DNA from: Candidatus Saelkia tenebricola
GTDB lineage: Bacteria > Omnitrophota > Gorgyraeia > Kaelpiales > Kaelpiaceae
Reading direction: 5' to 3'
Length of the DNA stretch: 64,000 nt
Assembly (NCBI GenBank): GCA_030765145.1
Contig: JAVCDA010000010.1
Coordinates: 49,087-113,086, forward strand
Shown: piece by piece, positions 39,017 to 54,435 of the stretch
Position numbering within the stretch: the first letter of the stretch is position 1
Layout: each line of letters begins with the position of its first letter
Notes under the pieces: generated by a model
The model's input: the letters and a program-made list of their open reading frames with translations, nothing else
Database searches by the model: none
What the model was told of the DNA's origin: nothing
Program-made: the position numbers and the translations under genes

Positions 39017-39802
39017 TTAAAACATGCTTCTACCTTGAGCCCCGTCTACAGGAATAGAAGCTCCATTGAGTAAAGCTGCTGCTTGGGAACAAATAAAAAC
39101 AACAACTCGCGCTATTTCATCAGGCACTCCAAACCGGCCCAATGGAAGCTCTTGTTTTATAAAATCCTCAACCTGAGCAGGGTTTTCTTTTAATTCTTTC
39201 TCCCATCCGGTATCAGGTATCATGATTGCACCCGGAGCAACACTATTAAAAGTAATATTACACTGGCTTAAATAAGGTTTTTTAGCCAGAGATTTCATAA
39301 ACGCTGTCTGAGCTGTTTTTGCCATACTAAACCAGGGCCTGGCGCCTGCCTCGCGGCCAAAAATAGAGGTTATAGTCACAACCCTTCCCCACTTTTGTTG
39401 ACGCAGATAAGGAATCACCTTGGTTGTAAACCTGACAGCCGAAAGCACATTTTTGTTATAAACTTCACTCCATACTTCTTCATCGGTTTCCTCAACTATT
39501 TCTTCCCCCCATCTGCCTCCCCCGCCGACATTGTTTATCAAAATATGAATCGTACCCCATTTGGCTATAATCTTTTCAATAACACTGTCTATATCCTTTT
39601 TTTCTGTAACATCTGCCTGCAAGGCTAAGACATCAACACCTTTCTCTTTTAACTCTTTTTCAGTTTGCTTAACCCGTTCGATATTCCGCGAACAAACAGA
39701 AACATTACATCCTTCATCGGCAAGAGCTAAAGCAATGCTCTTGCCGATACCATGCGTACCTCCAGTAACAAGTGCATATTTACCTTTAATTTTTAAATCC
39801 AT
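39017..39802 (-). CDS. Short-chain dehydrogenase/reductase (SDR).
   Basis: KYALVTGGTHGIGKSIA, NNVGG, and the YxxxK region. The true start is probably the internal ATG at 39802 (MDLKIKGK), which has an AAGGAG RBS. Confidence 0.75.
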   Translation of the reverse strand: MDLKIKGKYALVTGGTHGIGKSIALALADEGCNVSVCSRNIERVKQTEKELKEKGVDVLALQADVTEKKDIDSVIEKIIAKWGTIHILINNVGGGGRWGEEIVEETDEEVWSEVYNKNVLSAVRFTTKVIPYLRQQKWGRVVTITSIFGREAGARPWFSMAKTAQTAFMKSLAKKPYLSQCNITFNSVAPGAIMIPDTGWEKELKENPAQVEDFIKQELPLGRFGVPDEIARVVVFICSQAAALLNGASIPVDGAQGRSMF

Positions 39803-39822
39803 ATTTTTCTCCTTTTTCTCTT

Positions 39823-40764
39823 TTATTGAGAGAACACATCTAAAATTGTACTCACAACAGAATCGACATCTAAACCATACAAGCTGCGCATATATTCCCT
39901 GGAGCCGGTTTCGAAACAATGCTGATCCGGAATTGCTATTCGCTTTAAAAAAACATCTCCCCTGGCTTCAGCTAAAACCTCGCTTATAACTGTACCGATT
40001 CCTCCCTGGATAATATTTTCTTCTAAGGTTACTACAATTTTCGATTTATCAATCAGATTTAACAGCAATTCTATATTTAAAGGCTTGATTCTATAAAGAT
40101 CTAAAACTGCTGCCTTTATAGAATGGGATTTAAGTTCATCCGCTACTTTAACCGCCTCTTGAAGCATAATTCCGCCTGATATAATAGTTAAATCACTACC
40201 TTCCCTTACCTTGAAAATTCCACTTGAGAAATCCTTCTCTTTCTGTCGATCTATTAAAGGCAAAACACCTTTCTCAAGCCTTATATAAACGGGTGATGTA
40301 CTTTTATAGGCAATCTGGGCACAGGCTTGAGCAGTTACAGCATTCGAGGGATTTAATATCGTAATTTCAGGAAGCAAACGCATAAGAGCGATATCGCTTG
40401 TTCCGTGATGAGTAGGCCCGTCACTGGCATAAGAAAGCCCGGCACCTATACCTATGATACTTACTCCAAGATTCATAGCACAAATATCGATTTTAATCTG
40501 CTCGTAACATCTAAGCGTTGTGAACGGAATTATGCTGTAGATAAAAACATTCTTATCCACCAAAGATAATCCAGCTGCAATGCTCACCATGTTTTGTTCC
40601 GCAACAGCCATATTTATGAATTGGCTTGGAAGATCTTTTTTAAATTTAGCCAAACTAAAAGCACCCATGTCAGCTGTAAGGAATATTACATTCTTATCCT
40701 GTTGAGCAATACTATACAGCTGATCGAAAAATGCATCTCTAATATCTTTATTCAATGCTTTCAT
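39823..40764 (-). CDS. Split transketolase, C-terminal subunit (pyrimidine-binding plus C-terminal domain).
   Basis: LTADMG, EQNMVSIAAGL. Follows the N-terminal subunit with a 4-nt overlap. Confidence 0.8.
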   Translation of the reverse strand: MKALNKDIRDAFFDQLYSIAQQDKNVIFLTADMGAFSLAKFKKDLPSQFINMAVAEQNMVSIAAGLSLVDKNVFIYSIIPFTTLRCYEQIKIDICAMNLGVSIIGIGAGLSYASDGPTHHGTSDIALMRLLPEITILNPSNAVTAQACAQIAYKSTSPVYIRLEKGVLPLIDRQKEKDFSSGIFKVREGSDLTIISGGIMLQEAVKVADELKSHSIKAAVLDLYRIKPLNIELLLNLIDKSKIVVTLEENIIQGGIGTVISEVLAEARGDVFLKRIAIPDQHCFETGSREYMRSLYGLDVDSVVSTILDVFSQ

Positions 40765-41582
40765 AATTCAAGTTCTTTTTTTGCACGTTCTAAATCTTCT
40801 CCGCGAGGCACAGAATGGTGCCAATCTAAATTACCTTCCATAAAAGAAACACCCTTACCTTTAACGGTATTTGCTATCACAACCAGCGGTCTTTTTCCAA
40901 GCTTATTATGAAACTGTTTACAAACTGAAAGTAACTCTTGGTGAGAATGTCCATCTATGACAACCACATCCCAACCGCAGGAAACCCATTTCTTATCCAA
41001 CGGCTCTAAATCGAGACAATCTTTGAGAAAATCCGTAACACAAATCCCATTTCTATCAACAATGGCAACCAAATTATTTAATTTATGATGGCCTGCAAAC
41101 ATAGCAGCCTCCCAAACACTCCCCTCACAGCATTCTCCATCACCCAATAAAACACATGTGATAAAATCTTTAGCATCCATCTTCGCGCCTAAGGCAATCC
41201 CTGCACCTATTCCAAGTCCATGACCAAGAGACCCTGTGTCCGCTTCAATCCCGGGTATTTTTCTATCCGGGTGGCCTCTGAGAATAGATGTTTCTTTCTG
41301 GTAATTTTCAAGCTCTGAAAGAGCAAAATAGCCCAAATCAGCAAGCACAGCGTATAGGGAAGCTGCCGAATGCCCCTTGCTTAAAATAAATCTATCCCTA
41401 CCGGGTGATTCTTTATTCGTTGAATCAAAGCGAAGTATGCCACCGTAATACAGTGCAACTAAAATATCAGCGCATGAAAAAGCTCCTCCAATATGGCCTT
41501 TACCCGCAGATGAAATCATTTCTAAAACCTGCCTACGCACCCAACGGGATTTTTGTTCTAACTCTAATATGTTTTTCTGCAT
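40761..41582 (-). CDS. Split transketolase, N-terminal subunit (TPP-binding).
   Basis: GHIGGAFSCADIL, GSLGHGLGIGAGIALG, LGDGECCEG. Confidence 0.8.
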   Translation of the reverse strand: MQKNILELEQKSRWVRRQVLEMISSAGKGHIGGAFSCADILVALYYGGILRFDSTNKESPGRDRFILSKGHSAASLYAVLADLGYFALSELENYQKETSILRGHPDRKIPGIEADTGSLGHGLGIGAGIALGAKMDAKDFITCVLLGDGECCEGSVWEAAMFAGHHKLNNLVAIVDRNGICVTDFLKDCLDLEPLDKKWVSCGWDVVVIDGHSHQELLSVCKQFHNKLGKRPLVVIANTVKGKGVSFMEGNLDWHHSVPRGEDLERAKKELEL

Positions 41583-43093
41583 TAGTACTTTTTGAAAAAA
41601 TATACCTTAATATTCTTTAACACCCTTTTTACCACACCTTCTAATTTAGATGTAGTATTGCCTCTTGCTATATTAACAGCTAATCTAACCATTCGTCCAG
41701 GATGTGTTATGAACATAAGGCTGTAAAAACTGACAAATAAAAACAACCTCATTAAAGACAAAGTTAAAGGAGCAAAGTTCTTTGACCAAGATACATTTTT
41801 CGCTAAGTCTGCATAACCGAAAAGTCCAAAGAAGTACTCATCGTTTAATCTGATTCTTTTTCTATTCAATAAATCCTGGAATAACTCCGATCCCGGGTAA
41901 GGAATAAAAGGAAAAACATTAACTTCCTGAAGCCCTTTAGTCGCCAATTTCATAAGCAAAAAATAGGTCTTTAGAAAATCCTTAAATCTTTCCTCAGGCA
42001 ATCCTATGACAATATTCGTGCTCAAATTCATACCAGTTGTTAAACCGTCTTTTACTAAAGAAAACACCTTGTCTGGATTAGATTTTTTATTTACGCTTAT
42101 TAAAACATTTTTAGACCCTGACTCAACGGCAAAATCAAGTTCCCGACAACCCGCTTCTTGCATTAGCTCTAAAACATCAAAATCTAAATCTTCCGTCCTT
42201 AAAGTTGGAAGTTGCCAAGTAATATTAAGCCGACGTTTAATAATATCGCAACATAAATTGACAATGCTTTCTTTAGTAACCATTGCTGTAAGATCAGAGA
42301 AAACAAAATTATCCGCTCTATAGCGGGTGATATAATGCTGCATTTCATCTACAACTAAACTGGCACCCCTTGTAATCCAAGGGGTGCTCCACATGTGGGG
42401 ATTGGAGCAAAAACTACAGCTATAAGGACACCCGCGTGTTGCAAGCATCGGAATAGTACGGCCACGAGAAATATGATAATTCAATTCTCTGGATAGGTAA
42501 TTCTCCATCGGTGTTAAATCCCAGGCAGGGTAAGGGATTTTATCAATGTCTCTGATACGTTCTGCTCTTTGGGTGCAATGAAAATTACTGCCCTTATTGA
42601 TTCTGTAAACCAATCCGCGGATACCAGAAAACTCTTTTTTATTCTGCAGAGCATCAAGAAGCTGTACAAAAACACCTTCTCCTTCGCCAATTACACAGAC
42701 ATCCAGCTGGGGGCAATCTTTCATACAATACTCGGCTAAAGCCGAAACATGCTCGCCTCCTGCAACTAATACCGCTTCAGGGTTAAGTCTGGATACATAC
42801 TGGATCAATTCCCTGTGAAAAACCCAATCCTGGGAAAACATAGAACTGAACCCGATAACATCGCAATCTTTGAGCCGTTTTTTTAATGCAGAGAAATTCA
42901 TCCCATAAACCACATATTTGCCCCTTACAATCTCTGTGCACTCTATATCTTCACCGCACATATCTATAATGTCCACATCATATCCTGCCTTACGAGTTAC
43001 AGCAGCAATATAGCTTATGCCTAAAAAGGGAACCAAGTGTGCCCCCATTAAACCCACGCTATAAGCAGGAGGACGGATTAAGCTGATTTTCAT
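41582..43093 (-). CDS. B12-binding (class B) radical SAM enzyme, third paralog.
   Basis: B12-binding domain plus ATRGCPYSCSFCSNP. Confidence 0.7.
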   Translation of the reverse strand: MKISLIRPPAYSVGLMGAHLVPFLGISYIAAVTRKAGYDVDIIDMCGEDIECTEIVRGKYVVYGMNFSALKKRLKDCDVIGFSSMFSQDWVFHRELIQYVSRLNPEAVLVAGGEHVSALAEYCMKDCPQLDVCVIGEGEGVFVQLLDALQNKKEFSGIRGLVYRINKGSNFHCTQRAERIRDIDKIPYPAWDLTPMENYLSRELNYHISRGRTIPMLATRGCPYSCSFCSNPHMWSTPWITRGASLVVDEMQHYITRYRADNFVFSDLTAMVTKESIVNLCCDIIKRRLNITWQLPTLRTEDLDFDVLELMQEAGCRELDFAVESGSKNVLISVNKKSNPDKVFSLVKDGLTTGMNLSTNIVIGLPEERFKDFLKTYFLLMKLATKGLQEVNVFPFIPYPGSELFQDLLNRKRIRLNDEYFFGLFGYADLAKNVSWSKNFAPLTLSLMRLFLFVSFYSLMFITHPGRMVRLAVNIARGNTTSKLEGVVKRVLKNIKVYFFKKY

Positions 43094-43094
43094 T

Positions 43095-44216
43095 TTATCG
43101 TTTTAAATCAATTGTGCTGCAACAAGCACCGTTTTTATTCTTAAGATACGTTGGATGACTCCACATTTCTCTTATTAAACGCTGAAGCGGCTTTTTTCTG
43201 ACATTGCCAAAAGTATCGGGAAAAGCTACGCAAAGCTGGATATCTCCATAGGGTGAAATATTAAATATCTTGCCGTATAAAGCCTGACAAACCTTTTTCT
43301 TGCGCTTAACAGAATAAGCTCCTTCAATAAAAGCAAAGGAAGGATCAATATTCTCGATTACCCAGAGTTTTTCATCTTCGTTAAGCTCTATCTTCTTCTT
43401 CGCAATCCATTCTCCGGAAATTATGGGGAATAATATTCTTACGGCTGTTGCTTTAAGCTCTCGTGATAAATCAATGATTTTGGTTAAATCGCTTACATCA
43501 CCCGGCTGTGCAAACCCCTCTATTCTGCGCCGGGTTACATAGGTTGATACGATACAAGGAACACCTTCTTGGTGGCAAAAAGAAATTGCTGCCACCGCTC
43601 TCTTATAAATCCCCGGCAAACCCCGCAATTTATCATGTTCCTGTTCTTCTGCGCTATCTAAGCTTATGTTTATACAGCTTATGCCTGCATCTTTTAATCT
43701 TTTCACCATATCCCGGGTCAACAGCCAAGCATTGGTAGTTATTGAAATATACACCCCTTGTCGAGAGCCAAATCTAACCAACTCAACAATATCTTCTTTA
43801 AGGAGAGGCTCTCCACCGAAATAATCCACTTTAGGAATGCTGATTTTAACAGCCTGTTTCAAAAGACTTTTTATCTCATCAGCCGTAAGCTCTCTTTCTC
43901 TATCTACCTCAGAAAAATAATTTGAAACCGAACAATGCTTACATCTGCATTGACAGCTATAGGTCACAGACAGCTCAATAAGCCAGGGTACCTTTTTTTT
44001 AAAAACAGATGTTAACATCCAGTAACGAATCATTCTATATGCTTTTAAAAAAGTCATCCTGCTGAGCCCGACTTTTGAATACAATATTATTTTCCCGGCT
44101 TGTTTAAATACCGCTTTTATCTTTTTATCAATCATATCTTTTCGCCACACATTTATCACATATGTAATGCCCATTACAACACAAAATTCTGGATAATTCC
44201 ACCTTACCGCAGTCAA
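43095..44216 (-). CDS. Radical SAM enzyme with a SPASM/twitch-like C-terminal Cys cluster.
   Basis: SVTYSCQCRCKHC (CxxxCxxC), then a C-terminal CVAFPDTFGN..GACCS. The N-terminus is ambiguous because the ORF overlaps the upstream gene by about 90 nt. Confidence 0.6.
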   Translation of the reverse strand: MTAVRWNYPEFCVVMGITYVINVWRKDMIDKKIKAVFKQAGKIILYSKVGLSRMTFLKAYRMIRYWMLTSVFKKKVPWLIELSVTYSCQCRCKHCSVSNYFSEVDRERELTADEIKSLLKQAVKISIPKVDYFGGEPLLKEDIVELVRFGSRQGVYISITTNAWLLTRDMVKRLKDAGISCINISLDSAEEQEHDKLRGLPGIYKRAVAAISFCHQEGVPCIVSTYVTRRRIEGFAQPGDVSDLTKIIDLSRELKATAVRILFPIISGEWIAKKKIELNEDEKLWVIENIDPSFAFIEGAYSVKRKKKVCQALYGKIFNISPYGDIQLCVAFPDTFGNVRKKPLQRLIREMWSHPTYLKNKNGACCSTIDLKR

Positions 44217-44937
44217 GACATCTCACTTTTTCTTTAAACAATCTCACAACCATTGAATACCCACATATTAAACAAGGAACGGCATGAGTCGAACAAGGTG
44301 CCAAATTCTTAAATCTTAAAATACTCTTTAAAGTGAATAAAAAAGGAAAAGGCAAAGCTTTCCTTACAAGTTTTACATCTCCGGTACAAATAGTATTCAA
44401 TATTCCCGCTTTATCATCAGTCATAACTTCCGTATAGCTGCGGCCAACGAATTCGGCAGCTGTTGTATCAGTAGAAGAAAGACCGGGAATACCCAACTTT
44501 TCAGATACTCTCTTTGCCCGATAGTTATAAATAATTGAAGCGCCTAAAGCTGCATTATAAACCTCTATTGCATCCACAGAAAGCTCAGTTACCTTTTTTC
44601 CCAAGCCTAAAGGCAGGAACGGATGAACCGCAACAGCAATTCCACCCTGCGAATGTATCTGGTTGATTGTTTCATGAGCAGGTTGTAAATCAGCGATTTT
44701 TTCCTTAAGTCCCAGAGCAGTTAAATGACCTTCCTGACTGCATATTTCCTGACCAATTATAATAATAAAATCTTTTATCTCCTCTTTAATCTTAACCGCA
44801 TGGGAGAGGCTGAAAAAATTAGTAATTGCAGCACCGTCTAAATTGTTTTTCCCCAAAGCATATCTTAAATCGTCAGCCTCTATAAAAATTTTGCCTCGCG
44901 ATTCGCTATGGAGATGCAAGTCTAACTTGATAGACAT
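44128..44937 (-). CDS. PHP-domain metal-dependent phosphoesterase with a C-terminal Cys-rich zinc ribbon.
   Basis: LDLHLHSESRGKIF (the HxH of PHP), further His/Asp motifs, and a C-terminal CLICGY..CLDCG..CCNGHYICDKC. Confidence 0.5.
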   Translation of the reverse strand: MSIKLDLHLHSESRGKIFIEADDLRYALGKNNLDGAAITNFFSLSHAVKIKEEIKDFIIIIGQEICSQEGHLTALGLKEKIADLQPAHETINQIHSQGGIAVAVHPFLPLGLGKKVTELSVDAIEVYNAALGASIIYNYRAKRVSEKLGIPGLSSTDTTAAEFVGRSYTEVMTDDKAGILNTICTGDVKLVRKALPFPFLFTLKSILRFKNLAPCSTHAVPCLICGYSMVVRLFKEKVRCLDCGKVELSRILCCNGHYICDKCVAKRYD

Positions 44938-46034
44938 TTTCTACTTCTGGCAATAATTTTAGCCATTTCGAACATTATTCTAAGATAATATTCCGGTCTA
45001 TATATCAAATTATTTGACAAAGGCAACCCCCAGTGGCAATTGCATTTTTCTTTCACAATATTTTTACTGAATTTTTTCATCGAATCCGATTTTAAAATTT
45101 TATTAATATCATAACCGTTCTCTCTAAGATTCCCTACAGAATGCCACAACGGCTCGCATGGGAAAACATCCCCAACTTCATTTACCACAACCACTCTTTT
45201 CCCCGCCTTACATTGTTTATACATATTCCGATTTTTTAAAACCTTTTTTAAGAAATCGTTTTTCGTAATCCGTAAGGCAATAGTAAACAGAGAATGGAAT
45301 TCTTTTATGTTGTCTACAACAGTAGTATTTTCGATTTCATCGCAAAACTTGAAATACTCCTCCCAATTAAAATCAAAAGCTTCTTTATTAGAAACGCTAC
45401 CGTGAGTAACAGAAAAAACTACCCTGTCTAAATCCTTAAAATCTTGATCTAAGATATTAAATAATTCTTTAATATAATTCTGATTATAATGTGAGTACAC
45501 AACACACGCTTTGACTCTTAGATTCCTATATCTGTTTTTCAAAATAATCAACCCATCATACGTTTCCTTAAGTCTTTGAAAACTGTTTTCTAACCCGCGT
45601 ATTTCATCATGAACCGCTTCTGGCCCATCGATAGAAAGCTGTAAATCGACAATCATATCAGGACAATTTTTAAGAATATCTTCTGTCTGTTTTAAGATTC
45701 CCGCTGTAAAATACCCGTTTGTAGGAAGGTCTACTACTAAAGGAGGGGCGTTTTTATAAACCACTTTTATAATCTCAGATAAATCTTCCCTCATAAACGG
45801 TTCGCCCCCGGAAATACCCAGAATATTTATCAATTTTATATTTTTACTTATGTTATCGTATTCTTCTACAGTTAACTCATTTTTAGAACCGGAATTTTTT
45901 TTCATCTCCTCAATGTAAAAACACATTTTACAATTAGCATTACACTTGCCCGTAACAAAGAAAATTATATAGCTAGGGTAATTTAAAGTTCTAAACCACC
46001 TGGGCATTCTTCTCAATGATAAAGATTTCAGCAT
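44922..46034 (-). CDS. Radical SAM enzyme with a SPASM domain.
   Basis: FVTGKCNANCKMCFY, then a C-terminal cluster CEPLWHS..CNCHWGLP. Confidence 0.6.
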   Translation of the reverse strand: MLKSLSLRRMPRWFRTLNYPSYIIFFVTGKCNANCKMCFYIEEMKKNSGSKNELTVEEYDNISKNIKLINILGISGGEPFMREDLSEIIKVVYKNAPPLVVDLPTNGYFTAGILKQTEDILKNCPDMIVDLQLSIDGPEAVHDEIRGLENSFQRLKETYDGLIILKNRYRNLRVKACVVYSHYNQNYIKELFNILDQDFKDLDRVVFSVTHGSVSNKEAFDFNWEEYFKFCDEIENTTVVDNIKEFHSLFTIALRITKNDFLKKVLKNRNMYKQCKAGKRVVVVNEVGDVFPCEPLWHSVGNLRENGYDINKILKSDSMKKFSKNIVKEKCNCHWGLPLSNNLIYRPEYYLRIMFEMAKIIARSRKCLSS

Positions 46035-46077
46035 TAAAAAATAATCCTCCTATCTGAAAAAATTATTTACAATATGC

Positions 46078-47010
46078 TTAAACGTTGGAAAACTTATTGT
46101 TTTTGATGACCTGATACCCCTTTATCAGTTCAGCAATACCTTCTTCTAAAGATATCTGGGGCTTAAATCCTGTTTTCTCTATTTTTTCATTACTGATAAC
46201 ATAATCTCTTTTGTCCGGATCTTCTGATATATCTGATTCTACTAAAAAAAGCTCCGGGATTTGATTCTTAATCTTTTCGGCCAGTTCCATTTTGCTAAGA
46301 TTAGCATCGCTTAACCCTACATTGTAAGGCTCATTTTTCATCTGCTCGAAATTATTAAGACAGTGTAAGAATACTTTGGCTACATCACGAACATGAATAT
46401 AATTCCTTTTAAAACCGGCTTCAAAAAGCACAATATACTTATCATTCAAGGCGCGATAGGTAAAATCATTGACTAAAAGATCCAATCTCATTCTGGGGCT
46501 GATTCCAAAAACAGTGGCAAGTCTTAAAGTAATACTATTGGGGGAATTCAAAATAACATTTTCCGCTTCTACCTTTAATTTTCCGTAAAGGGAAATCGGT
46601 TTTAACAAGGCTTCTTCTGTACAGTATTTATCTTTCTCGCCTATTCCATATCCACTGTTTGTAGTGGGAAAAATAATGATTTGCTCTTTGCTCCTTAAAT
46701 CATTTATCATTTTTATAGCATCTAATACAACTGAACGAGCTGTGGTGGGATCTTTTTTGCATAAAGGTGAACCTGTAAGGCAAGCTAAAGGTAAAATTAC
46801 ATCTACTTCTTTTATAAGTTTAGCAATCAGTGATTTATCCCGAGCATCACCTCGAATGATTTCTAGATTTTTGTTATTGCAACAATCCAATAAAGGTGTC
46901 TGGTTGTACATAAAATTATCCACTGCAATTATACAATGTGATTCTTTTAATAATGCAGGAACCAAAATAGCACCGATATAACCTGCTGCACCTGTAACTA
47001 ATATCTTCAT
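46078..47010 (-). CDS. NAD-dependent epimerase/dehydratase family protein.
   Basis: MKILVTGAAGYIGA Rossmann motif. About 310 aa of extended SDR. Confidence 0.7.
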   Translation of the reverse strand: MKILVTGAAGYIGAILVPALLKESHCIIAVDNFMYNQTPLLDCCNNKNLEIIRGDARDKSLIAKLIKEVDVILPLACLTGSPLCKKDPTTARSVVLDAIKMINDLRSKEQIIIFPTTNSGYGIGEKDKYCTEEALLKPISLYGKLKVEAENVILNSPNSITLRLATVFGISPRMRLDLLVNDFTYRALNDKYIVLFEAGFKRNYIHVRDVAKVFLHCLNNFEQMKNEPYNVGLSDANLSKMELAEKIKNQIPELFLVESDISEDPDKRDYVISNEKIEKTGFKPQISLEEGIAELIKGYQVIKNNKFSNV

Positions 47011-47014
47011 TTTT

Positions 47015-47950
47015 TTATACCCTCTTCTTTAAGTTTTTATACCATTCATACGTCTGATAAATGCCTTCCTCAAGCGTTATTTCCGCACTCCAGCCTAAAA
47101 CATTAATCTTACTGGAATCTAAGAGTTTTTTTAGCACCCCAACAGGTTTTGACTCATCAAAAACTATTTTTCCCCGAAATCCTACTACATCTTTTATCAA
47201 TAATGCTAAATCTTTAATGGAAATATCTTCACCCACGCCGATATTAATAATTTCTGGTGAATCATAATTATTCATTAAAAAAACAGCCGCCTTAACAACA
47301 TCCTCCACATATATGAACTCCCTTAAAGCGATACCTCGCCCCCAAACAACAACCTCTTTATCGCCTCTAATCTTTGCCCCATAAAATTTACTTACCAAAG
47401 CAGCCATTACATGGGAATTTTCTGAATCAAACTCATCATAAGGCCCGTAAATAGTTGCGGGAACTGCTGAAATAAAATTTACGCCATGTTGAAGATTGTA
47501 GGCTTGAGACATCTTTATCCCTGCTATCTTAGATACTGCATAATGAGCGCTTGTCTCCTCTAATCTCCCATTTAAAAAACAGCTTTCTTTAATCGCCTGA
47601 GAGCTATCAGCTGGATAAACACATGAGCTAGCCAAGAAAAGCATCTTTTTCACCTTAAATTCAAAGCTGGACTGTATTATGTTATTTTGAACCTCTAAGT
47701 TGGTATGCATTAAATCTGCAGGGCATTTGATATTTGCAGCTATACCATAAGACTTTATGTGGTTTAAAAAAACATATCCCGGTTTTTCTTTTTTAAAAAA
47801 AGACCGCACTGAATCTTGATTCATTAAATCGACTTCAAAACTAACATTGTCTAAAACATTGATAAAACCATTTTGCTCAAAATACCGAATGAAAGATGTT
47901 CTTAAAATATCCTTGTCTCCTGCAATAAAAATTTTAGAATTTTTATCCAT
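47015..47950 (-). CDS. GDP-L-fucose synthase (Fcl)-like 3,5-epimerase/4-reductase.
   Basis: LASSCVYPA, YAVSKIAGIKMSQAYNLQHG, PATIYGPYDEF. These are all close to Fcl signatures. Confidence 0.65.
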   Translation of the reverse strand: MDKNSKIFIAGDKDILRTSFIRYFEQNGFINVLDNVSFEVDLMNQDSVRSFFKKEKPGYVFLNHIKSYGIAANIKCPADLMHTNLEVQNNIIQSSFEFKVKKMLFLASSCVYPADSSQAIKESCFLNGRLEETSAHYAVSKIAGIKMSQAYNLQHGVNFISAVPATIYGPYDEFDSENSHVMAALVSKFYGAKIRGDKEVVVWGRGIALREFIYVEDVVKAAVFLMNNYDSPEIINIGVGEDISIKDLALLIKDVVGFRGKIVFDESKPVGVLKKLLDSSKINVLGWSAEITLEEGIYQTYEWYKNLKKRV

Positions 47951-47951: not shown

Positions 47952-49001
47952 TTAAGATTGCCCTTTCATCAAATCAGCCGCTGTATTAATAATATCATCT
48001 GCTCCGGGATAAAAAGCTTCTTCCAAAACATAGGAACTAGGAATGGGGATATCAGGCCAGGTAATACGTTTAATAGGCGCTTTTAGATATCTAAAACCCT
48101 GATCCGCAACAACTGCTGCTATCTCAGATGCTGCACCGGCAATTCCCCAATCAGTATCAGCAATAATTAAATGTCCTGTTTTTTTGACTGAATTAATTAT
48201 AATTTCTACATCTAAAGGTTTTAATGTTCTTAAGTCTATTACTTCTATATCACAGCCTTGTTCTTTTAACTTTTCAGCCGCTCTTAAAGCCTCGATTACC
48301 ATATAAGAGATCCCTACAACTGTAACATCTTTGCCTTCTCGACGGATAAGACCCTTACCAAAAGGAATAGAGTAAAGCTCCCGGGGAACATAGCTTTGGT
48401 GTTTAAACAACCAGCGGTGTTCAATAAATAAAACAGGGTTATTATCGGCAATACTTCTAACTAAAAGTCCTTTGGCATCATACGCTGTAGAAGGCATCAC
48501 AAGACGCAACCCCGGTATATGCATAAACAAGCCGTGTAAAGCTTGAGAATGCTGGGCACCAGACCCCCAGCCCCGCCCAATAACAGCTACGATAACTAAC
48601 GGTACCTGCAATTCGCCTCCGAAAATATAGCTATATTTGGAGGCATGGTTAACGATTTGATCCATTGCTAAAAGCAGAAAATCAGGACGGTTATGAAAAT
48701 ATACCGGCCTCATACCGCAAATAGCAGCTCCAGAAGCTATGCCTGTTAAAGCATTTTCGGATAAAGGGGTGTCAAAAACCCTCTTCTTACCATACTTTTT
48801 ATGCAAATTAAGCGTCATACCAAACATGCCAGTATAATCATCTACGCCTTGCCCCATAACAAAAATACGTTCGTCCTTCCCAAGCACCTGATATAAAGTT
48901 TCTCTTATAGACTCAGACACGTTAAGCTTTCTTTTAATCTTATCCGGATGCTCATCAAATCCGGGCTCTTTGGTTTCAATTAAAAATTTTGTCCAGGGCA
49001 T
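47952..49001 (-). CDS. TPP-dependent 2-oxoacid/acetoin dehydrogenase E1 component, beta subunit-like.
   Basis: RVFDTPLSENALTGIASGAAICGMRPV, DQIVNHASK, HSQALHGLFMHIPGLRLVMPS, DNNPVLFIEH. Confidence 0.75.
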   Translation of the reverse strand: MPWTKFLIETKEPGFDEHPDKIKRKLNVSESIRETLYQVLGKDERIFVMGQGVDDYTGMFGMTLNLHKKYGKKRVFDTPLSENALTGIASGAAICGMRPVYFHNRPDFLLLAMDQIVNHASKYSYIFGGELQVPLVIVAVIGRGWGSGAQHSQALHGLFMHIPGLRLVMPSTAYDAKGLLVRSIADNNPVLFIEHRWLFKHQSYVPRELYSIPFGKGLIRREGKDVTVVGISYMVIEALRAAEKLKEQGCDIEVIDLRTLKPLDVEIIINSVKKTGHLIIADTDWGIAGAASEIAAVVADQGFRYLKAPIKRITWPDIPIPSSYVLEEAFYPGADDIINTAADLMKGQS

Positions 49002-49002: not shown

Positions 49003-49980
49003 TTATCTGAATAAATATTTTTTTAAATCTTTCTTATTGGGCAATATAGACTCCTTAGCAAATTTAAAAGCTTCGGTAAGTTCTTTGTCTATCGTTTTTG
49101 AAATTTTTGATTTCTTTTCTTTTGTTAAGATATTATTTTTTAAAAGCTTTCTCTCTAAACTTTTGAGAGGGTCTTTTCTTATCCACTCCTTCCATTCGTT
49201 AATATTTCTATAAGTATCTTTATGCGGATCTCCTGCCCCGGCATGAGCTCTAAAGCGATATGCCCTGCACTCAAGAAGCACCGGCCCCCTTCCTCTTCGG
49301 GCACAATTAATAGCTTCTCTTGATTTCAAGTAAACCTCACACACATCCGAACCATCAATTTGATAAGCTGGAATATCAAAAGCCTTACCGCGCATAGATA
49401 TATCAGGATTCGCTTCTCTTGCACTTTGATGTGAACAGACAGAATAGAAATTATTTTCACAGACATAGACAATCGGTAATTTTTTTAAAGTAGCGAAATT
49501 CATACTCTCAAAGAACACCCCTTCTTCAGTTGCTGCATCTCCGAAAAATACAACCGAAACTTTACCGTCTTTTTTCAAAACAGAACTTAACGCCGCACCG
49601 GTAGCAATAGGTATACTGCCTGCGACAATCGCCGATGAGCCCATGTGGCCAACTTTCGTTGCTATTAAATGCATGGAACCACCCCTCCCCTTAGAACAAC
49701 CGGTTTCTTTACAATACAACTCCGCAACCAATTTTTTAACATCTCCTCCTTTGGCTATATAGTGACCATGGCTGCGGTGATTGCTGAACAGATAATCATC
49801 TTTTTTTAAATTGGCACACACTCCGCTTGAGATTGCTTCCTGACCGATACAGAGATGCACCGGCGTCTTCATCTCATCCTTATGATACTCTGCTTCGATT
49901 TTAAGCTGAAGTTTTCTAATCTTAAGCATTTCCTGATAAAGCTTAAGTAAAGTTGTGCTTGAGATAGACTTCATTCTCAT
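49003..49980 (-). CDS. TPP-dependent 2-oxoacid/acetoin dehydrogenase E1 component, alpha subunit-like.
   Basis: IGQEAISSG, GGSMHL, and the TPP motif FFGDAATEEG..VCENN. Confidence 0.75.
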   Translation of the reverse strand: MRMKSISSTTLLKLYQEMLKIRKLQLKIEAEYHKDEMKTPVHLCIGQEAISSGVCANLKKDDYLFSNHRSHGHYIAKGGDVKKLVAELYCKETGCSKGRGGSMHLIATKVGHMGSSAIVAGSIPIATGAALSSVLKKDGKVSVVFFGDAATEEGVFFESMNFATLKKLPIVYVCENNFYSVCSHQSAREANPDISMRGKAFDIPAYQIDGSDVCEVYLKSREAINCARRGRGPVLLECRAYRFRAHAGAGDPHKDTYRNINEWKEWIRKDPLKSLERKLLKNNILTKEKKSKISKTIDKELTEAFKFAKESILPNKKDLKKYLFR

Positions 49981-49987: not shown

Positions 49988-50692
49988 TCAATGCCAATAA
50001 AATTTTTCTTTTAACACTTGCATGAGATATGCCGCACCCCATTTCAGTACTTTTAATTTTCTTTCGCCTCCTATACGAGGAGGCTCATCTCCCGGAATAT
50101 CACAACATTTAAGTTTCTTTTTCCCCGCCCGTACAGATAAAAGCGGCTCAACACCTATTTTAGTGCGAAAAATTCTCTCTTCTGTTTGATAGCTTTCTTC
50201 CCGATCCAAGTCCAACGCTTTAAAAATTTCGCTCTTCCATCCCCTGAATATCACCATTGCATCAGTATAGCGTGCACCGTAAAGCAAATTTATTAAAGAA
50301 GTAAACATCCAGTTCCCAAAAGCTGTTATAACGTCATCATCATAACTCTTAACATCTTTTGCATAACGGGAAACTATCACCATATCATAGCCTTCGCTCA
50401 TTTTCTCTATTAATTCGGGAATTTTCTCTGGAATAGAATTTCCATCCGGACTAAAAGTAATAACAAAATCCGTCTTAACACACTCCATCGCTTCGATGTA
50501 AGCACAGCGTATACCTTCTTTCTTCTGTACTATTAGTTTATATCCACACTCTTTAACATATTTAATTGTCCCATCTGTAGATCCGCCATCAACAATGATA
50601 ATCTCGTCTACCCAGTCTTGGTTTATTTTTGGCATAATTATCTTCATGCCTTCAATTTCATTGAGGGTAAAAACCAATAATGTTACTTTCAT
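49988..50692 (-). CDS. Small GT2-like glycosyltransferase. Paralog of the gene at 38334-39011.
   Basis: MKVTLLVFTLNEIEGM..IIIVDGGSTDGT..SPDGNSIPEKIPEL. The same motifs appear in the same order as in the paralog. Confidence 0.5.
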   Translation of the reverse strand: MKVTLLVFTLNEIEGMKIIMPKINQDWVDEIIIVDGGSTDGTIKYVKECGYKLIVQKKEGIRCAYIEAMECVKTDFVITFSPDGNSIPEKIPELIEKMSEGYDMVIVSRYAKDVKSYDDDVITAFGNWMFTSLINLLYGARYTDAMVIFRGWKSEIFKALDLDREESYQTEERIFRTKIGVEPLLSVRAGKKKLKCCDIPGDEPPRIGGERKLKVLKWGAAYLMQVLKEKFYWH

Positions 50693-50784
50693 TTTATATC
50701 CTGATTTAAAAAACTATTTTCCAAAAACCATTATATAACATATGTATGTCGCTAACAAGACGCTCTAATGCAAGGAAACAAAAA

Positions 50785-50812
50785 ACCCCCGCCTCTTGCA
50801 AAATAGGCGGGG
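50785..50812 (-). terminator. Rho-independent terminator closing the por-fdx operon.
   Basis: Perfect 9-bp GC-rich stem CCCCCGCCT/AGGCGGGGG with a 10-nt loop. On the minus strand it is followed by TTTTTGTTTCC. It lies 20 nt past the ferredoxin stop. Confidence 0.55.
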
Positions 50813-50831
50813 GTATATGGCGTAACAAAAT

Positions 50832-51017
50832 TTATTCCACAACAATTGCATTCACAGGACAATCTTCAACCATTTGTTTAGCATTGCCTTCCTGATCCTC
50901 GGCTAGTACATCAGATACCGCAACAGCCTTATCTTCTTCCATTTTAAAAACATTAGGAGCCATATTAACACAAAGACCGCAACCTATACAAAGCTCCGCA
51001 TCTACTTTAACTATCAT
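50832..51017 (-). CDS. Small 2x[4Fe-4S] ferredoxin.
   Basis: CIGCGLC..CP .. a second Cys region. 61 aa. Confidence 0.75.
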   Translation of the reverse strand: MIVKVDAELCIGCGLCVNMAPNVFKMEEDKAVAVSDVLAEDQEGNAKQMVEDCPVNAIVVE

Positions 51018-51448: not shown

Positions 51449-52336
51449 TCATTTTTTCAAAATATCATATTTTTCAATATTGTCCGCGACAATACCATTT
51501 AGATATTCTAAAACTTCTTTTACCTCTGGAGCGTCTTTCATAAGGTGCTTAAATCTGCCCTGTATTTTTAAAAATTCTTCTATGGGCTTTAGTTCCTTAA
51601 GTTTCATGGTATTTACAAGTTTCCCGTTTTCATACTCCACAATAGGGAAAAGCCCTGTTTCAACAACAAGTTTCCCCACTTTGTCTGTCAAATCAGCTCC
51701 ATGTCGCCATCCCAGAGGACAGGGAACAAAAATGTGTAAAAACTTAGGCCCTTTTATAGAAAAAGCTTTCTTAACCTTTCTTTCTAAATCTCTAATATAG
51801 CCAACAGATGCAGTCCCAACATAAGGTATGTTGTGAGCAGCGCAAATCGCAGCCATCGTCTTCTTAGGACGCGGATTACCCAAAGAAAGCTTCCCTGCAG
51901 GAGTTGTTGTTGTGCTAGCATAAGCAGGAGTCATACCGCTTCTTTGAATCCCTGTATTCATATAAGCTTCATTATCATACATCACATAAAGTATATCTTG
52001 ACCTCTCTCAAGCATACCAGAGAGAGCTTGTAATCCAATATCTGCAGTTCCACCATCTCCGCCTTGAGCTATAACATTAATCTTATCTTTTTTACCCAAA
52101 TGTCTCAATGCCACCTCAACACCGGATGCAACTGCAGCAGAATTTTCAAAAAGGGAATGAATCCAGGGCACACACCAAGATGTGTGAGGAAACCCTGTTG
52201 AGAAAACCTCTAAACAACCTGTCGCATTTGTCACTATAGTATTACTTCCTGCAGCATTTAAAACAATTCGTGCAGCCATAGACTGTCCGCAGCCAGCACA
52301 GGCAGTATGTCCGGAAACAAATAAATTTTCTTGCAT
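51449..52336 (-). CDS. porB: 2-oxoacid:ferredoxin oxidoreductase beta subunit (TPP-binding).
   Basis: HTACAGCGQ.., GGDGGTADIG. Confidence 0.85.
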   Translation of the reverse strand: MQENLFVSGHTACAGCGQSMAARIVLNAAGSNTIVTNATGCLEVFSTGFPHTSWCVPWIHSLFENSAAVASGVEVALRHLGKKDKINVIAQGGDGGTADIGLQALSGMLERGQDILYVMYDNEAYMNTGIQRSGMTPAYASTTTTPAGKLSLGNPRPKKTMAAICAAHNIPYVGTASVGYIRDLERKVKKAFSIKGPKFLHIFVPCPLGWRHGADLTDKVGKLVVETGLFPIVEYENGKLVNTMKLKELKPIEEFLKIQGRFKHLMKDAPEVKEVLEYLNGIVADNIEKYDILKK

Positions 52337-52349
52337 TAAAACCTCCCTC

Positions 52350-53546
52350 TTATTCTTCTTCTAAAACCATAATGGGTGATTCTTCCTTATACCACTTTTT
52401 TAAATCTATAAACCTTACCGCTTTGGTCTCCTCATCTAAAAGACTAAACATTTCTTTTACAGTTTCCTTTTTTATATCTCTTCCTCCAAGCCCTACAACA
52501 AAACCATTTATAGATTTAGCAGATTTTTTTTCTTGCAACAATGCTGAAATCTCAAGATGTAAAGGACCTGAAGACCCCAAAGAAATCGCCTTATCTACAA
52601 CACCAATCTTTTCAATATCTTTCAATGCTTCATAAATCACATCTTTGGGAAAAGGTCGATAAGCTATAATCCTCAGCAGACCAACGCGCTCACCATTAGC
52701 TCTTAATTCATCAACAGTATCTTTAATAGTTCCTGCAACAGATCCCATCCCTACCAATACTTTATCAGCATCTTCGGTTTTATATTTCTCAACGATTAAA
52801 GGTACTTTCCTGCCCATAATGCTTTCGAATTCTTTTTCTATCCCAGGCAACAGGGCTAAAACTTCTTCCATTGTTTTATGAATTGCATAACGTGTTTCCA
52901 TATAAACATCCGGCGCCCCAAGAAGCCCCATAGTAAGAGGATTCTCCGTATCCAATTTATATAAAGCATCGTATTTCGGTAAGAATTTATCAACTACATC
53001 TTGCTCTACCAGATCCAAATTTTCATAGCCGTGAGAAAGAATATATCCATCCATACAAACCATGCAAGGCAGCATAACATCTTTATTTTCTGCTATTTTA
53101 TAGGCAACGTAATGCAAATCCTGCACATCCTGATTATTCTCTGCATAAAACTGCATCCAACCCGCATCTCTTATTGCCATTGAATCCTGATGGTCATTCC
53201 AAATATTTATTGGCGCTGAAAGCGCTCTGTTTACACATGTTAAAACAACCGGCAACCTCATACCTGCTATATTGAACAAAACTTCACTCATTAAAATTAA
53301 TCCTTGTGAGCTCGTAGCGGTAAAAGATCTTACGCCTGTTGCCGTTGAACCTAAAACAACTGACGCCGCAGAATGTTCTGATTCTACATTAATAAATTCC
53401 GCAGCTAATTCCCCATCGGCAACCATTTCTGAAAGCCTTTCTACTATATGTGTTTGAGGCGTAATCGGATATGCGCAAACAACACCCGGCTTTATCCTTT
53501 TAACTGCTTCAGCAACAGCATGTGAACCTTCCATAAATACTTTCAT
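52350..53546 (-). CDS. porA: 2-oxoacid:ferredoxin oxidoreductase alpha subunit.
   Basis: MEGSHAVAEAVK..CAYPITPQT. Confidence 0.85.
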   Translation of the reverse strand: MKVFMEGSHAVAEAVKRIKPGVVCAYPITPQTHIVERLSEMVADGELAAEFINVESEHSAASVVLGSTATGVRSFTATSSQGLILMSEVLFNIAGMRLPVVLTCVNRALSAPINIWNDHQDSMAIRDAGWMQFYAENNQDVQDLHYVAYKIAENKDVMLPCMVCMDGYILSHGYENLDLVEQDVVDKFLPKYDALYKLDTENPLTMGLLGAPDVYMETRYAIHKTMEEVLALLPGIEKEFESIMGRKVPLIVEKYKTEDADKVLVGMGSVAGTIKDTVDELRANGERVGLLRIIAYRPFPKDVIYEALKDIEKIGVVDKAISLGSSGPLHLEISALLQEKKSAKSINGFVVGLGGRDIKKETVKEMFSLLDEETKAVRFIDLKKWYKEESPIMVLEEE

Positions 53547-53803
53547 TGTTCCTCCTCCTGGACCATTTCAATGTCTTTTTTGGGGCAAATTACAGCACAC
53601 AAACCGCATCCTTTGCAATAATCATAATTAACCTGATATTCATTCTTATTTTCGCCCGTAATGCATCCTTCCGGGCAAATATCAACACACATATTGCAAG
53701 CGATACAGTCCTTATGCAACATTTTTGGTCTTTTTTTCACCCGCCAAGAACCTGTTTTATTTCTTAAACTCGTACCGGGTTTAGAAATGATAGGGACAAA
53801 CAT
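53543..53803 (-). CDS. porD: 2-oxoacid:ferredoxin oxidoreductase delta subunit (2x[4Fe-4S]).
   Basis: CIACNMCVDICP..CKGCGLCAVICP. Confidence 0.8.
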   Translation of the reverse strand: MFVPIISKPGTSLRNKTGSWRVKKRPKMLHKDCIACNMCVDICPEGCITGENKNEYQVNYDYCKGCGLCAVICPKKDIEMVQEEEQ

Positions 53804-53883
53804 TTAATACCTCCTTTTAATGAGTTCATGATTTACGGAGTACTAACGAACGTAAACCATCTGAACGAACTATATAGATTATA

Positions 53884-54435
53884 TTAATTTTCATTTGCCT
53901 TTAAATCCAAAGCATACTGATACCCTTTATGGGCACAAACAGCATTTTTTTCTCCTATTTCACCTTTAAATCTTTCCAGTATCGCACTTTCAAGACTTTC
54001 TATTGTAATTTCTTTAGATATTGCCGCAAATGCTCCCAACACTGCGGTATTTCCTAAAGGTCGGCCAATCACTTCCAAAGCTATTTGATTTGCCGGAATA
54101 GTAAAAATTTTAATATTATCTTTATCTAGTTCATATTCTTTCCCAGAATTAATAATTACAATCCCACCGTCTTTAGTATCGCTGAATACATCCTGACTTT
54201 TCATAAGCGTAGCATCAATAACAAGGGCATAATCAGGATTGTATATTTTAGAACGCATTCTGATAGGATTTTCATCCACCCTGATGAAAGCATTCATAGG
54301 CGCTCCCATTCTAGCAGCACCAAAATGAGGGAAAGCATAAGCAAATTTATCTTCTTTAAAATAAGACCCCCCTACAATAACTGCCGTAGTAATAGCGCCT
54401 TGACCTGCCCGGGCATATACTGTTATTTCTTTCAT
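53884..54435 (-). CDS. porG: 2-oxoacid:ferredoxin oxidoreductase gamma subunit.
   Basis: ARAGQGAITTA..FGAARMGAP. Confidence 0.8.
   Translation of the reverse strand: MKEITVYARAGQGAITTAVIVGGSYFKEDKFAYAFPHFGAARMGAPMNAFIRVDENPIRMRSKIYNPDYALVIDATLMKSQDVFSDTKDGGIVIINSGKEYELDKDNIKIFTIPANQIALEVIGRPLGNTAVLGAFAAISKEITIESLESAILERFKGEIGEKNAVCAHKGYQYALDLKANEN

Follow-up and report, generated by a model that had tools for sequence, protein, structure and literature searches.

A radical SAM gene trio within a conserved operon

The DNA analyzed here is a stretch of 64,000 nucleotides from Candidatus Saelkia tenebricola of the Omnitrophota (assembly GCA_030765145.1, contig JAVCDA010000010.1, positions 49,087 to 113,086; hereafter the window). 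It contains two radical S-adenosylmethionine (SAM) genes, rSAM1 and rSAM2, which flank a gene, PHP-Zn, for a PHP-domain protein with a Cys/His-rich C terminus. The proteins of the window are identical to those of the metagenome-assembled genome bearing that name. We found that this trio belongs to one 21-gene, 23-kb operon (27348 to 50692, minus strand). The operon is large and widely conserved, and its most likely role is the synthesis of an unusual lipid-linked sugar in uncultured anaerobes. More specifically, we lean modestly toward a reading in which it yields one or two heavily tailored, polyprenyl-phosphate-carried sugars for the cell envelope, with the radical SAM enzymes and PHP-Zn tailoring a sugar intermediate. 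An earlier note on this DNA had treated the trio as a unit; the three genes do adjoin, but they are not isolated and belong to a far larger conserved cassette with five radical SAM enzymes (rSAM1, rSAM2, and the cobalamin-binding B12a, B12b, and B12c).

Synteny was assessed by tblastn searches with 21 window proteins against 33 loci, comprising 8 genomic contexts of PHP-Zn or rSAM2 homologs and 25 loci from a scan of a genome collection with an rSAM2 alignment. Across the 26 distinct loci, the window included, the conserved order was rSAM1, PHP-Zn where present, an optional B12-dependent radical SAM gene with or without an rSAM2 paralog, rSAM2, B12a, the N- and C-terminal subunits of a split transketolase (TK-N and TK-C), a short-chain dehydrogenase/reductase (SDR), a small family 2 glycosyltransferase (GT2b), an epimerase, B12b, B12c, and a 765-aa membrane protein (U765). 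This arrangement is not a product of chance, recurring as it does in 25 distinct loci besides the window. Often found near the cassette were genes for the two subunits of a thiamine diphosphate (ThDP)-dependent E1 enzyme (E1αβ), further SDRs, a GHMP kinase, a nucleotidyltransferase, and a DegT-family protein. The earlier note had thought a role on sugar substrates plausible, and such a role fits these neighbors (the kinase, the nucleotidyltransferase, DegT, the SDRs, the GT2s, and the ThDP enzymes), which are syntenic in the 25 other loci. In two loci (L003, 13373 to 15724; L004, 9253 to 11604), B12a and TK-N are fused as one 783-aa protein, a fusion that ties radical and ThDP chemistry to one pathway.

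Most of the loci carry the source name Omnitrophota. The other names attached to the cassette or its homologs were Elusimicrobia, Firestonebacteria, Brocadiaceae, 'Planctomycetia', and Desulfobacterales, together with one 'Patescibacteria' metagenome-assembled genome (MAG), one 'Vicingus' MAG, and the Olavius algarvensis Delta 1 symbiont. Our literature searches found no paper describing the cassette. A nitrogenase-paralog/radical SAM cluster of Elusimicrobia (10.1101/765248) is a different cluster.

PHP-Zn was present in 21 of the 26 distinct cassettes, always directly after rSAM1. Its start overlaps the rSAM1 stop by 10 to 16 nt in the window, L001, and L005, and follows it after a gap of 5 to 9 nt in L003 and L007. 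The five cassettes without PHP-Zn leave no room for the gene: rSAM1 is followed by rSAM2 after 38 to 92 nt in L008, L014, and L028 and directly by a B12-dependent radical SAM gene in L016 and L029. Because it is missing from these five, PHP-Zn is accessory and appears dispensable for the core chemistry.

Some cassettes hold additional genes between PHP-Zn and rSAM2. An extra B12-dependent radical SAM gene lies there in L001, L003, L007, L023, L025, and L027, accompanied by an rSAM2 paralog (tblastn) in L007, L023, and L025. In the Olavius Delta 1 symbiont (L008), whose cassette lacks the PHP-Zn gene, NeuB-like and MptE-like genes (309 to 1319 and 19165 to 20274) lie on either side of the cassette, a possible sign of a connection with nonulosonic-acid-type sugars in this lineage.

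Gene starts and translational coupling

All three genes of the trio are real and lie on the minus strand where the earlier note had placed them: rSAM1 at 44922 to 46034 (370 aa), PHP-Zn at 44128 to 44937 (269 aa), and rSAM2 at 43095 to 44135 (346 aa, with its start corrected to ATG 44135). The longest open reading frame (ORF) of rSAM2, as called mechanically, begins at TTG 44216 and overlaps PHP-Zn by 89 nt. The earlier note had offered two explanations for this overlap of about 90 nt, an internal start at MIDKK or a genuine overlap. The 120 rSAM2 homologs listed are mostly 342 to 350 aa long, and their aligned N termini fall at MIDKK; we therefore assigned the start to ATG 44135, in favor of the first explanation. 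As judged from these alignments, the long overlap is a longest-ORF artifact, and the predicted true overlap with the PHP-Zn stop is 8 nt (ATGATTGA).

Neighboring genes are similarly tight. rSAM1 and PHP-Zn overlap by 16 nt, rSAM2 and B12a are 1 nt apart, and B12a overlaps the gene that follows it by 1 nt. The sole strong Shine-Dalgarno sequence within the four-gene block from rSAM1 to B12a is an AGGAGG at 46046 to 46051 (minus strand), read directly from the sequence 11 nt upstream of the rSAM1 ATG. These four genes form a translationally coupled block. The compactness extends to the operon as a whole, in which 21 genes cover 99.4% of the bases with junctions of −16 to +61 nt, the largest internal gap being 61 nt.

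Two twitch-like radical SAM enzymes

rSAM1 matches the Pfam families Radical_SAM, Fer4_12, and SPASM (PF13186, 27.2 bits against a cutoff of 21.5), and the rSAM2 ORF matches Radical_SAM and Fer4_12. We derived cysteine patterns from alignments of 26 rSAM1 and 29 rSAM2 homologs. Invariant in the rSAM1 family are the CX3CX2C motif (C31/C35/C38), a hairpin of C275-x12-G288-x4-C293 followed by C331xC333, and two further cysteines, C177 and C231. The rSAM2 family has an invariant CX3CX2C (C61/C65/C68), an invariant hairpin of C283-x13-G297-x4-C302, and an invariant C187, while the CC pair C338, C339 and also C194 are kept in at least 90% of sequences. Four C-terminal cysteines are conserved in each family, and the CX2CX5CX3C motif of a second auxiliary cluster is found in neither. 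Because this motif is absent, both enzymes are predicted to be twitch-like, with a truncated SPASM domain that would bind one auxiliary 4Fe-4S cluster, and not full SPASM proteins. The definitions of twitch and SPASM domains, like the cysteine pattern of BtrN, are reportedly those of Grell, Goldman and Drennan (2015). The description of both enzymes as SPASM-type in the earlier note is thus only partly right: both possess the CX3CX2C and CX12-13GX4C motifs, neither has CX2CX5CX3C, and the Pfam SPASM family is matched by rSAM1 but not by rSAM2.

Enzymes that act on small molecules, BtrN, MoaA, and BlsE among them, have this twitch architecture. BtrN (2-deoxy-scyllo-inosamine dehydrogenase), BlsE (cytosylglucuronate decarboxylase), and MoaA resemble rSAM1 and rSAM2 in the CX3CX2C core, the CX9-15GX4C hairpin, and cysteines for a single auxiliary cluster; they act on small molecules, and their genes lie in sugar contexts. 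Both window families differ from them in carrying further conserved cysteines, and rSAM2 in an additional N-terminal two-helix extension. The rSAM1 and rSAM2 families align with each other over their whole length, including at the twitch cysteines (hhalign 98.8%, 24% identity), and on this alignment they appear to be distant paralogs.

The earlier note had called for profile assignment of the two enzymes, which yielded superfamily and domain matches but no family: neither protein reached or approached any NCBIfam equivalog cutoff. The best matches were AhbD and NirJ2, at 128 bits (cutoff, 500) and 116 bits for rSAM2 and at 68 and 65 bits (cutoffs, 500) for rSAM1. The BlsE model gave 71 bits against a cutoff of 400 and the MoaA model 97 against 284. 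Since AhbD and NirJ2 are tetrapyrrole enzymes that lead the lists of both proteins, we considered whether the pair might carry out an AhbC/AhbD/NirJ-like radical decarboxylation or side-chain removal in tetrapyrrole or cofactor maturation. We judge this very unlikely, as the scores fall far below the 500-bit cutoffs and neither the operon nor the syntenic loci have tetrapyrrole or cofactor genes.

Among proteins of solved structure, rSAM2 is nearest in sequence to BlsE (E value, 2.7e-15) and MoaA, which were also found by fold, although identity to them is below 20% and their equivalog cutoffs are not reached; GDGT-MAS was matched as well. For rSAM1 the only match was GDGT-MAS, and it was weak. 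The AlphaFold2 (AF2) model of rSAM2 (pLDDT, 89.8) places the N-terminal two-helix extension in about 45 aa, and Foldseek searches with it returned SkfB, SuiB, BlsE, MoaA, DesII, and viperin about equally (TM-score, 0.55 to 0.65). Because the peptide maturases SkfB and SuiB rank alongside sugar enzymes, the fold does not discriminate the substrate class. An anti-phage defense role was considered and set aside, PADLOC having returned generic viperin-core matches only.

No precursor peptide, sulfatase, or carrier protein

The earlier note had described SPASM/twitch enzymes as best known for maturing peptides or proteins, and the two enzymes could in principle be maturases of a nearby precursor peptide in a subcluster for a ribosomally synthesized and posttranslationally modified peptide (RiPP). 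Pointing that way are the score of rSAM1 above the Pfam SPASM threshold, the many peptide maturases among the NCBIfam matches (PqqE, PapB, HxsC, and WgkB), and the place of SkfB and SuiB at the top of the rSAM2 Foldseek results. The maturase matches all lie far below their family cutoffs, and the second-cluster motif is missing from both enzymes. The earlier note had seen no precursor-like small ORF nearby and had proposed a six-frame scan at a low length cutoff over 43000 to 46100; when we ran the scan over 42900 to 46200, every ORF of at least 20 aa lay inside a larger gene, and no ORF of at least 15 aa lay mainly in noncoding sequence anywhere in the operon, in agreement with that observation. 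The density of the operon, with 99.4% of bases coding and gaps of at most 61 nt, points the same way, as do the lack of a peptidase, a transporter, or a RiPP recognition element and the fact that the conserved partners in the 25 other loci are sugar enzymes. A RiPP subcluster is accordingly a very poor prospect in our estimation.

We give still less weight to the idea that these are anaerobic sulfatase-maturing enzymes (anSMEs) serving a nearby sulfatase, which the earlier note had named alongside a precursor ORF as a finding that would overturn a sugar role. One rSAM1 homolog from JGI was automatically annotated as 'sulfatase maturation enzyme AslB', and rSAM1 gives a weak match of 47 bits to the anSME model TIGR03942. 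That score is far short of the 349-bit cutoff, the model is not among the best 25 matches of rSAM2, and anSMEs bear two auxiliary clusters, whereas only one could be ligated in rSAM1. A sulfatase domain was found neither in the 50 window ORFs scanned against Pfam nor among the Pfam-called genes of eight fetched loci. With neither a precursor ORF nor a sulfatase in hand, the objections that the earlier note had foreseen did not materialize.

Compared with SPASM maturases at large (anSME, PqqE, AlbA, SkfB, and SuiB), the window enzymes belong to the same superfamily branch and have similar folds (TM-score, 0.6 to 0.65), but they lack CX2CX5CX3C, a peptide substrate gene, and a sulfatase, and they miss the family cutoffs by three- to ten-fold or more. 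A carrier protein, the other substrate that the earlier note had entertained, found no support, no acyl or peptidyl carrier protein gene being present.

PHP-Zn, a PHP barrel with a two-site metal domain

PHP-Zn consists of a PHP barrel (about aa 1 to 205, nt 44323 to 44937, minus strand) and a C-terminal Cys/His metal domain (aa 218 to 269, nt 44128 to 44286 with the stop codon, minus strand). The protein matches Pfam PHP_C (25.8 bits against a cutoff of 21.3) and the NCBIfam CehA/McbA metallohydrolase domain; there was no match to Pfam PHP (PF02811). Its AF2 model (pLDDT, 93.9) adopts a PHP barrel fold, with a Foldseek probability of 1.00 to PHP structures. The closest solved structures were PsfC (E value, 6e-10; 14% identity), BVU_3505, RNase AM, TM0559, and EndoQ.

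Seven barrel residues are invariant among 26 homologs (D6, H8, H10, E64, H71, H105, and D157). Six of these (H8, H10, E64, H71, H105, and D157) line up with the metal ligands of TM0559 and RNase AM, so that the ligand set of a binuclear site, made up of HxH, a bridging Glu, two His, and an Asp, is kept. We compared the third-metal motifs of the cassette family with those of stand-alone relatives, which keep SxD, TDH, and SD(A/S)H. In the cassette family all three are replaced, S-x-D by S-R-G, T-D-H by T-N-F, and S-D-(A/S)-H by T-D-T-T. The residues lost (the Asp after HxH, the His of 'DH', and the His of 'DxH') are those that we take to be the third-metal ligands, and because all three are gone, the site is predicted to be binuclear.

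The C-terminal domain has nine residues that are invariant in the same homologs (H218, C222, C225, C240, C243, C253, H257, C260, and C263), arranged as CxxCG...CxxCG followed by C-x3-H-x2-C-x2-C. By this count, the ligands would suffice for two metal sites. The C4-type zinc ribbon described in the earlier note is therefore real as a Cys-rich domain but not as a four-ligand site, there being eight or nine conserved ligands and two predicted sites. Resemblance to double zinc ribbons (DUF1610/HVO_2753-like) or RING-like motifs was seen only at E values of about 0.1 to 4.

The note had also called the architecture unusual, and so it proved. A PHP-Zn profile gave roughly 2,100 matches at an E value of at most 1e-10 against 1.84 billion representatives; most of the best 150 of these are about 210 to 230 aa long and cover the PHP part only, and about ten representatives at 50% identity cover the full length with the zinc domain. 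Near-full-length homologs number about 44 (47 to 84% identity), all from metagenomes or MAGs. Two of the more distant full-length relatives keep the eight Cys/His ligands and sit in unrelated contexts without radical SAM genes. Because of these relatives, the combination of the two domains appears to predate its recruitment to the cassette, and PHP-Zn is best read as a self-contained enzyme that was recruited. Names of cluster members for the distant relatives were uninformative, consisting of automatic 'TrpH' labels only.

In its (β/α)7 barrel, PHP-Zn resembles both PsfC and the PHP phosphoesterases, including TM0559, BVU_3505, RNase AM/TrpH, Cv1693, and histidinol-phosphate phosphatase (E values, 1e-9 to 1e-10). 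It shares the HxH, bridging Glu, two His, and Asp ligands with the phosphoesterases and departs from them in the replaced third-metal ligands, the added Cys/His domain, and the position of its gene between radical SAM genes. Endonuclease Q likewise joins a PHP barrel to a zinc-binding domain (Foldseek E value, 2e-6; 16% identity), but it is a DNA repair nuclease from another genomic context.

We conclude that PHP-Zn is accessory and probably a catalytic, binuclear metalloenzyme; catalysis is favored over an adaptor role because all six binuclear ligands are invariant. Whether it is a hydrolase is another matter. PsfC is described as a dinuclear non-heme-iron enzyme that acts in fosfomycin biosynthesis, turning 2-phosphonomethylmalate into 3-oxo-4-phosphonobutanoate, and PHP-Zn might be a dinuclear redox or decarboxylating enzyme of that kind, or else a silent metal-binding adaptor that docks onto rSAM1 or feeds electrons to it via a rubredoxin-like CxxCG...CxxCG domain. 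The top structural rank of PsfC would agree with this, and so would the dinuclear site left by the loss of third-metal ligands, CxxCG knuckles that are compatible with Fe or Zn, and a DUF362-ferredoxin gene found directly after PHP-Zn in L005. Yet identity to PsfC is only 14%, most of the other structural neighbors are phosphoesterases or nucleases, and the invariance of the binuclear ligands speaks for catalysis and not for an adaptor. In addition, the hosts are presumably anaerobes, as suggested by their taxa, by pyruvate:ferredoxin oxidoreductase (PFOR) and ferredoxin, and by five radical SAM genes, whereas the PsfC reaction is assumed to require O2. On balance we consider a nonhydrolytic PHP-Zn unlikely.

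The gene in L005 (10848 to 11954; also in L006) encodes a DUF362 protein with a 2x[4Fe-4S] ferredoxin domain and is an insertion, confined to one lineage, between PHP-Zn and rSAM2. The window holds a second, unrelated PHP-domain protein at 62913 to 63929 (minus strand), a PolX-type DNA polymerase fragment (DNA_pol_B_thumb plus PHP).

A proposed sugar-tailoring pathway

We infer the substrate, reaction types, step order, and product of the cassette as follows. The radical SAM enzymes would act on a nucleotide-, phosphate-, or polyprenyl-linked small-molecule sugar and not on a peptide. rSAM1 and rSAM2 would each abstract a hydrogen atom from a sugar carbon, and the auxiliary cluster would take up an electron to give a carbonyl, as in a BtrN-like dehydrogenation; epimerization, dehydration, or decarboxylation are other possible outcomes. 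The new carbonyl could then be the acceptor for C2 transfer by the split transketolase and E1αβ, extending or branching the chain, after which the adjacent short-chain reductase would reduce the ketone. C-methylation would fall to the three B12-dependent radical SAM enzymes. GT2b would place the product on polyprenyl phosphate, for transfer outside the membrane by proteins with 11 transmembrane (TM) segments. For PHP-Zn, the likeliest task is to take a phosphate or phosphoester off an intermediate, as GmhB or LmbK does in heptose or octose nucleotide-sugar pathways, with the two-site zinc domain of PHP-Zn probably serving for docking.

Known routes offer partial parallels. Higher sugars are activated by HddA, GmhB, and HddC for GDP-D-glycero-D-manno-heptose and by LmbR, LmbN, LmbP, LmbK, and LmbO for the lincosamide octose, and the Arn pathway makes undecaprenyl phosphate-linked L-Ara4N. 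The kinase and nucleotidyltransferase of the operon have HddA and HddC as best matches, a ThDP carboligase could lengthen the chain, and there is an enzyme of phosphatase type; ArnC, ArnB, ArnA, and ArnT have their parallels in the GT2, DegT, SDR, and GT-C genes. The operon has no SIS isomerase or HAD phosphatase, its HddA and HddC scores are far below cutoff, and its five radical SAM and two ThDP enzymes have no counterpart in the heptose, octose, and Arn pathways. A phosphonate pathway, suggested by the PsfC fold and by matches of B12-dependent radical SAM enzymes to P-methyltransferases, was rejected, since the ThDP enzymes belong to the transketolase and E1 types and the scanned genes include no phosphoenolpyruvate mutase.

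The five radical SAM enzymes could alternatively modify a lipid tail or a headgroup carbocycle, in the manner of Tes/GDGT-MAS, HpnH, HpnJ, HpnR, or the B12-dependent radical SAM enzymes of ladderane type, and not a free nucleotide sugar. GDGT-MAS is after all the sole solved-sequence match of rSAM1 and is matched by rSAM2 as well; HpnJ, HpnR, HpnH, and 'lipid biosynthesis B12-binding/radical SAM protein' are among the best matches of the B12 enzymes and rSAM2; GT2 and GT-C genes imply a lipid-linked substrate; and one cassette comes from a Brocadiaceae MAG. All of the lipid-enzyme matches are well below cutoff, however, the cassette has no genes for fatty-acid, isoprenoid, hopanoid, or ether-lipid synthesis, and its constant partners (transketolase, SDRs, kinase, nucleotidyltransferase, and aminotransferase) belong to sugar chemistry. 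Membrane-lipid tailoring therefore strikes us as quite improbable, although it overlaps our proposal should the enzymes act on the sugar head of a polyprenyl-phosphate sugar.

Several observations weigh against the sugar-tailoring proposal. Because no enzyme of the block reaches a curated equivalog cutoff, no reaction is assigned by homology. The top-scoring models of both twitch enzymes are for tetrapyrrole enzymes, and in the structural comparison of the rSAM2 model the peptide maturases SkfB and SuiB appear level with the sugar enzymes. The cluster has no sugar isomerase (SIS) gene, which a strict heptose/octose analogy requires. PHP-Zn is missing from 5 of the 26 cassettes, so that its step is either dispensable or supplied elsewhere in those genomes. 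Finally, the apparent loss of the third-metal ligands typical of PHP phosphatases weakens the phosphatase assignment, and the closest solved structure to the PHP domain, PsfC, is an oxidative enzyme and not a hydrolase.

A bolder version of the sugar-tailoring proposal, which we regard as doubtful though deserving of mention, is that the cassette encodes a new pathway by which anaerobes make a higher-carbon sugar, C-methylated, chain-extended or branched, that is carried on polyprenyl phosphate. Here the twitch enzymes would make the carbonyl acceptors for ThDP-dependent C2 transfer, PHP-Zn would be a new binuclear class (possibly nonhydrolytic, like PsfC) physically coupled to rSAM1, and the product would be an envelope glycoconjugate common to Omnitrophota, Elusimicrobiota, and other uncultured anaerobes.

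Radical SAM sugar tailoring is known from a handful of antibiotic pathways. The superfamilies in the operon are known, and it is the combination of five radical SAM enzymes, two ThDP enzymes, and PHP-Zn in a broadly conserved envelope-glycan cassette that appears undescribed. The cassette occurs in phyla with no or very few cultured representatives, and if our proposal is correct, it would represent a new anaerobic strategy for lengthening, branching, and methylating sugars and would point to a new cell-surface molecule in Omnitrophota and Elusimicrobiota. Two well-populated, functionally unassigned twitch families (more than 100 close homologs each) and the rare PHP-plus-zinc architecture are targets for enzymology. 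For annotation, the lesson is not to infer a RiPP from a 'SPASM' match when no precursor gene accompanies it.

Other genes of the operon and its surroundings

The remaining genes of the operon, all on the minus strand, are given here from the first to the last. Ahead of the trio lie GT2a (49988 to 50692), a small polyprenyl-phosphate-type GT2 and the first gene of the operon; E1 α (49003 to 49980) and E1 β (47952 to 49001), which are ThDP dependent and of the pyruvate dehydrogenase type, with no E2 or E3 near the pair; a GDP-L-fucose-synthase-like 3,5-epimerase/4-reductase (47015 to 47950; NCBIfam, 356 bits against a cutoff of 500); and an NAD-dependent epimerase/dehydratase (46078 to 47010).

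B12a (41582 to 43093), a class B radical SAM protein, follows the trio, and its best NCBIfam matches are P- and C-methyltransferase families, all below cutoff. Pfam B12-binding (PF02310) and Radical_SAM (PF04055) are above cutoff in B12a, B12b, and B12c alike, and none of the three reaches an equivalog cutoff. Inside the B12a coding sequence is a perfect 10-bp GC-rich hairpin without a T tail, GCACCCCTTG-GATTA-CAAGGGGTGC (42363 to 42387, minus strand).

The split transketolase is encoded by TK-N (40761 to 41582), the ThDP-binding subunit (Transketolase_N, 134 bits; NCBIfam transketolase, 267 bits), and TK-C (39823 to 40764), the pyrimidine-binding subunit (Transket_pyr and Transketolase_C; transketolase, 184 bits, and DXS, 176 bits). 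The SDR (39017 to 39802, 261 aa; adh_short and adh_short_C2) shows the same longest-ORF artifact as rSAM2, its mechanical ORF (39017 to 39919) starting at TTG 39919 and overlapping TK-C by 97 nt; because the orthologs in L003, L005, and L007 are 261 aa, we assigned the start to ATG 39802. GT2b (38334 to 39011; Glycos_transf_2) is of the small polyprenyl-phosphate hexose-transferase type, with scores below cutoff of 119 bits to AglJ and 82 bits to dolichyl-phosphate hexose transferase. Next come an NAD-dependent epimerase/reductase that is GDP-fucose-synthase-like (37363 to 38337; NCBIfam GDP-L-fucose synthase, 161 bits, below cutoff), B12b (35837 to 37366; best matches BchE and HpnJ, below cutoff), and B12c (34378 to 35844; HpnJ, 149 bits, below cutoff).

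U765 (32090 to 34387), an integral membrane protein with about 11 hydrophobic segments and a soluble domain by hydropathy scan, marks the synteny-conserved end of the cassette and had no family match in Pfam, NCBIfam, or PDB searches. Beyond it are a GHMP sugar kinase (31033 to 32028) whose best match is the heptose-7-phosphate kinase HddA (168 bits against 600) and a sugar-1-phosphate nucleotidyltransferase (30341 to 31036) that best matches HddC (162 against 300) and mannose-1-phosphate guanylyltransferase, below cutoff; HddA and HddC are best matches only, their equivalog cutoffs not being reached. The last two genes encode a DegT/DnrJ/EryC1-family sugar aminotransferase (29154 to 30344; PF01041, 324 bits; best matches RfbH, PseC, and ArnB) and a GT-C-type, PMT_2/ArnT-like membrane glycosyltransferase (27348 to 29150; about 11 TM segments; PMT_2, 24.9 bits, just below cutoff). 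PDB sequence searches with both 11-TM proteins gave no match. Altogether, the sugar genes of the operon include four epimerase/dehydratase-family SDRs and one classical short-chain SDR, two GT2s, and the two 11-TM proteins.

Four of these genes form an Arn-like module, namely the ArnC/AglJ-like GT2 at 49988 to 50692, the SDR at 46078 to 47010, the DegT gene at 29154 to 30344 (ArnB, 182 bits), and the ArnT/PMT_2-like gene at 27348 to 29150. The module suggests that a second lipid-linked amino sugar is made alongside the radical SAM product. In L005 (3740 to 8886), GT2, SDR, and PMT_2 genes lie side by side, with those for a GHMP kinase and a nucleotidyltransferase coming next.

Directly upstream of the operon are a single-cluster ferredoxin of 61 aa (50832 to 51017) and PFOR subunits (51449 to 54435), a plausible low-potential electron source for the five radical SAM enzymes. 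The 139-nt gap before GT2a contains the best sigma-70-like match of the region, TTGTTA-17-TATAAT (50730 to 50758, minus strand). It is a possible operon promoter for which only the location is suggestive, since the region holds no more promoter-like or terminator-like matches than chance would give. A 36-aa Cys-rich ORF with a TTG start (LSCECNCCGINF..., 50752 to 50862, minus strand) in the same gap runs out of frame into the 3' end of the ferredoxin gene and has probably arisen by chance.

Envelope functions are abundant in the window. Elsewhere in it we observed a further set of GT2, PMT_2, and TPR membrane-protein genes (394 to 7278) and a type IV pilus/type II secretion system set with a secretin, an ATPase, a platform protein, and PilZ (7960 to 14280).

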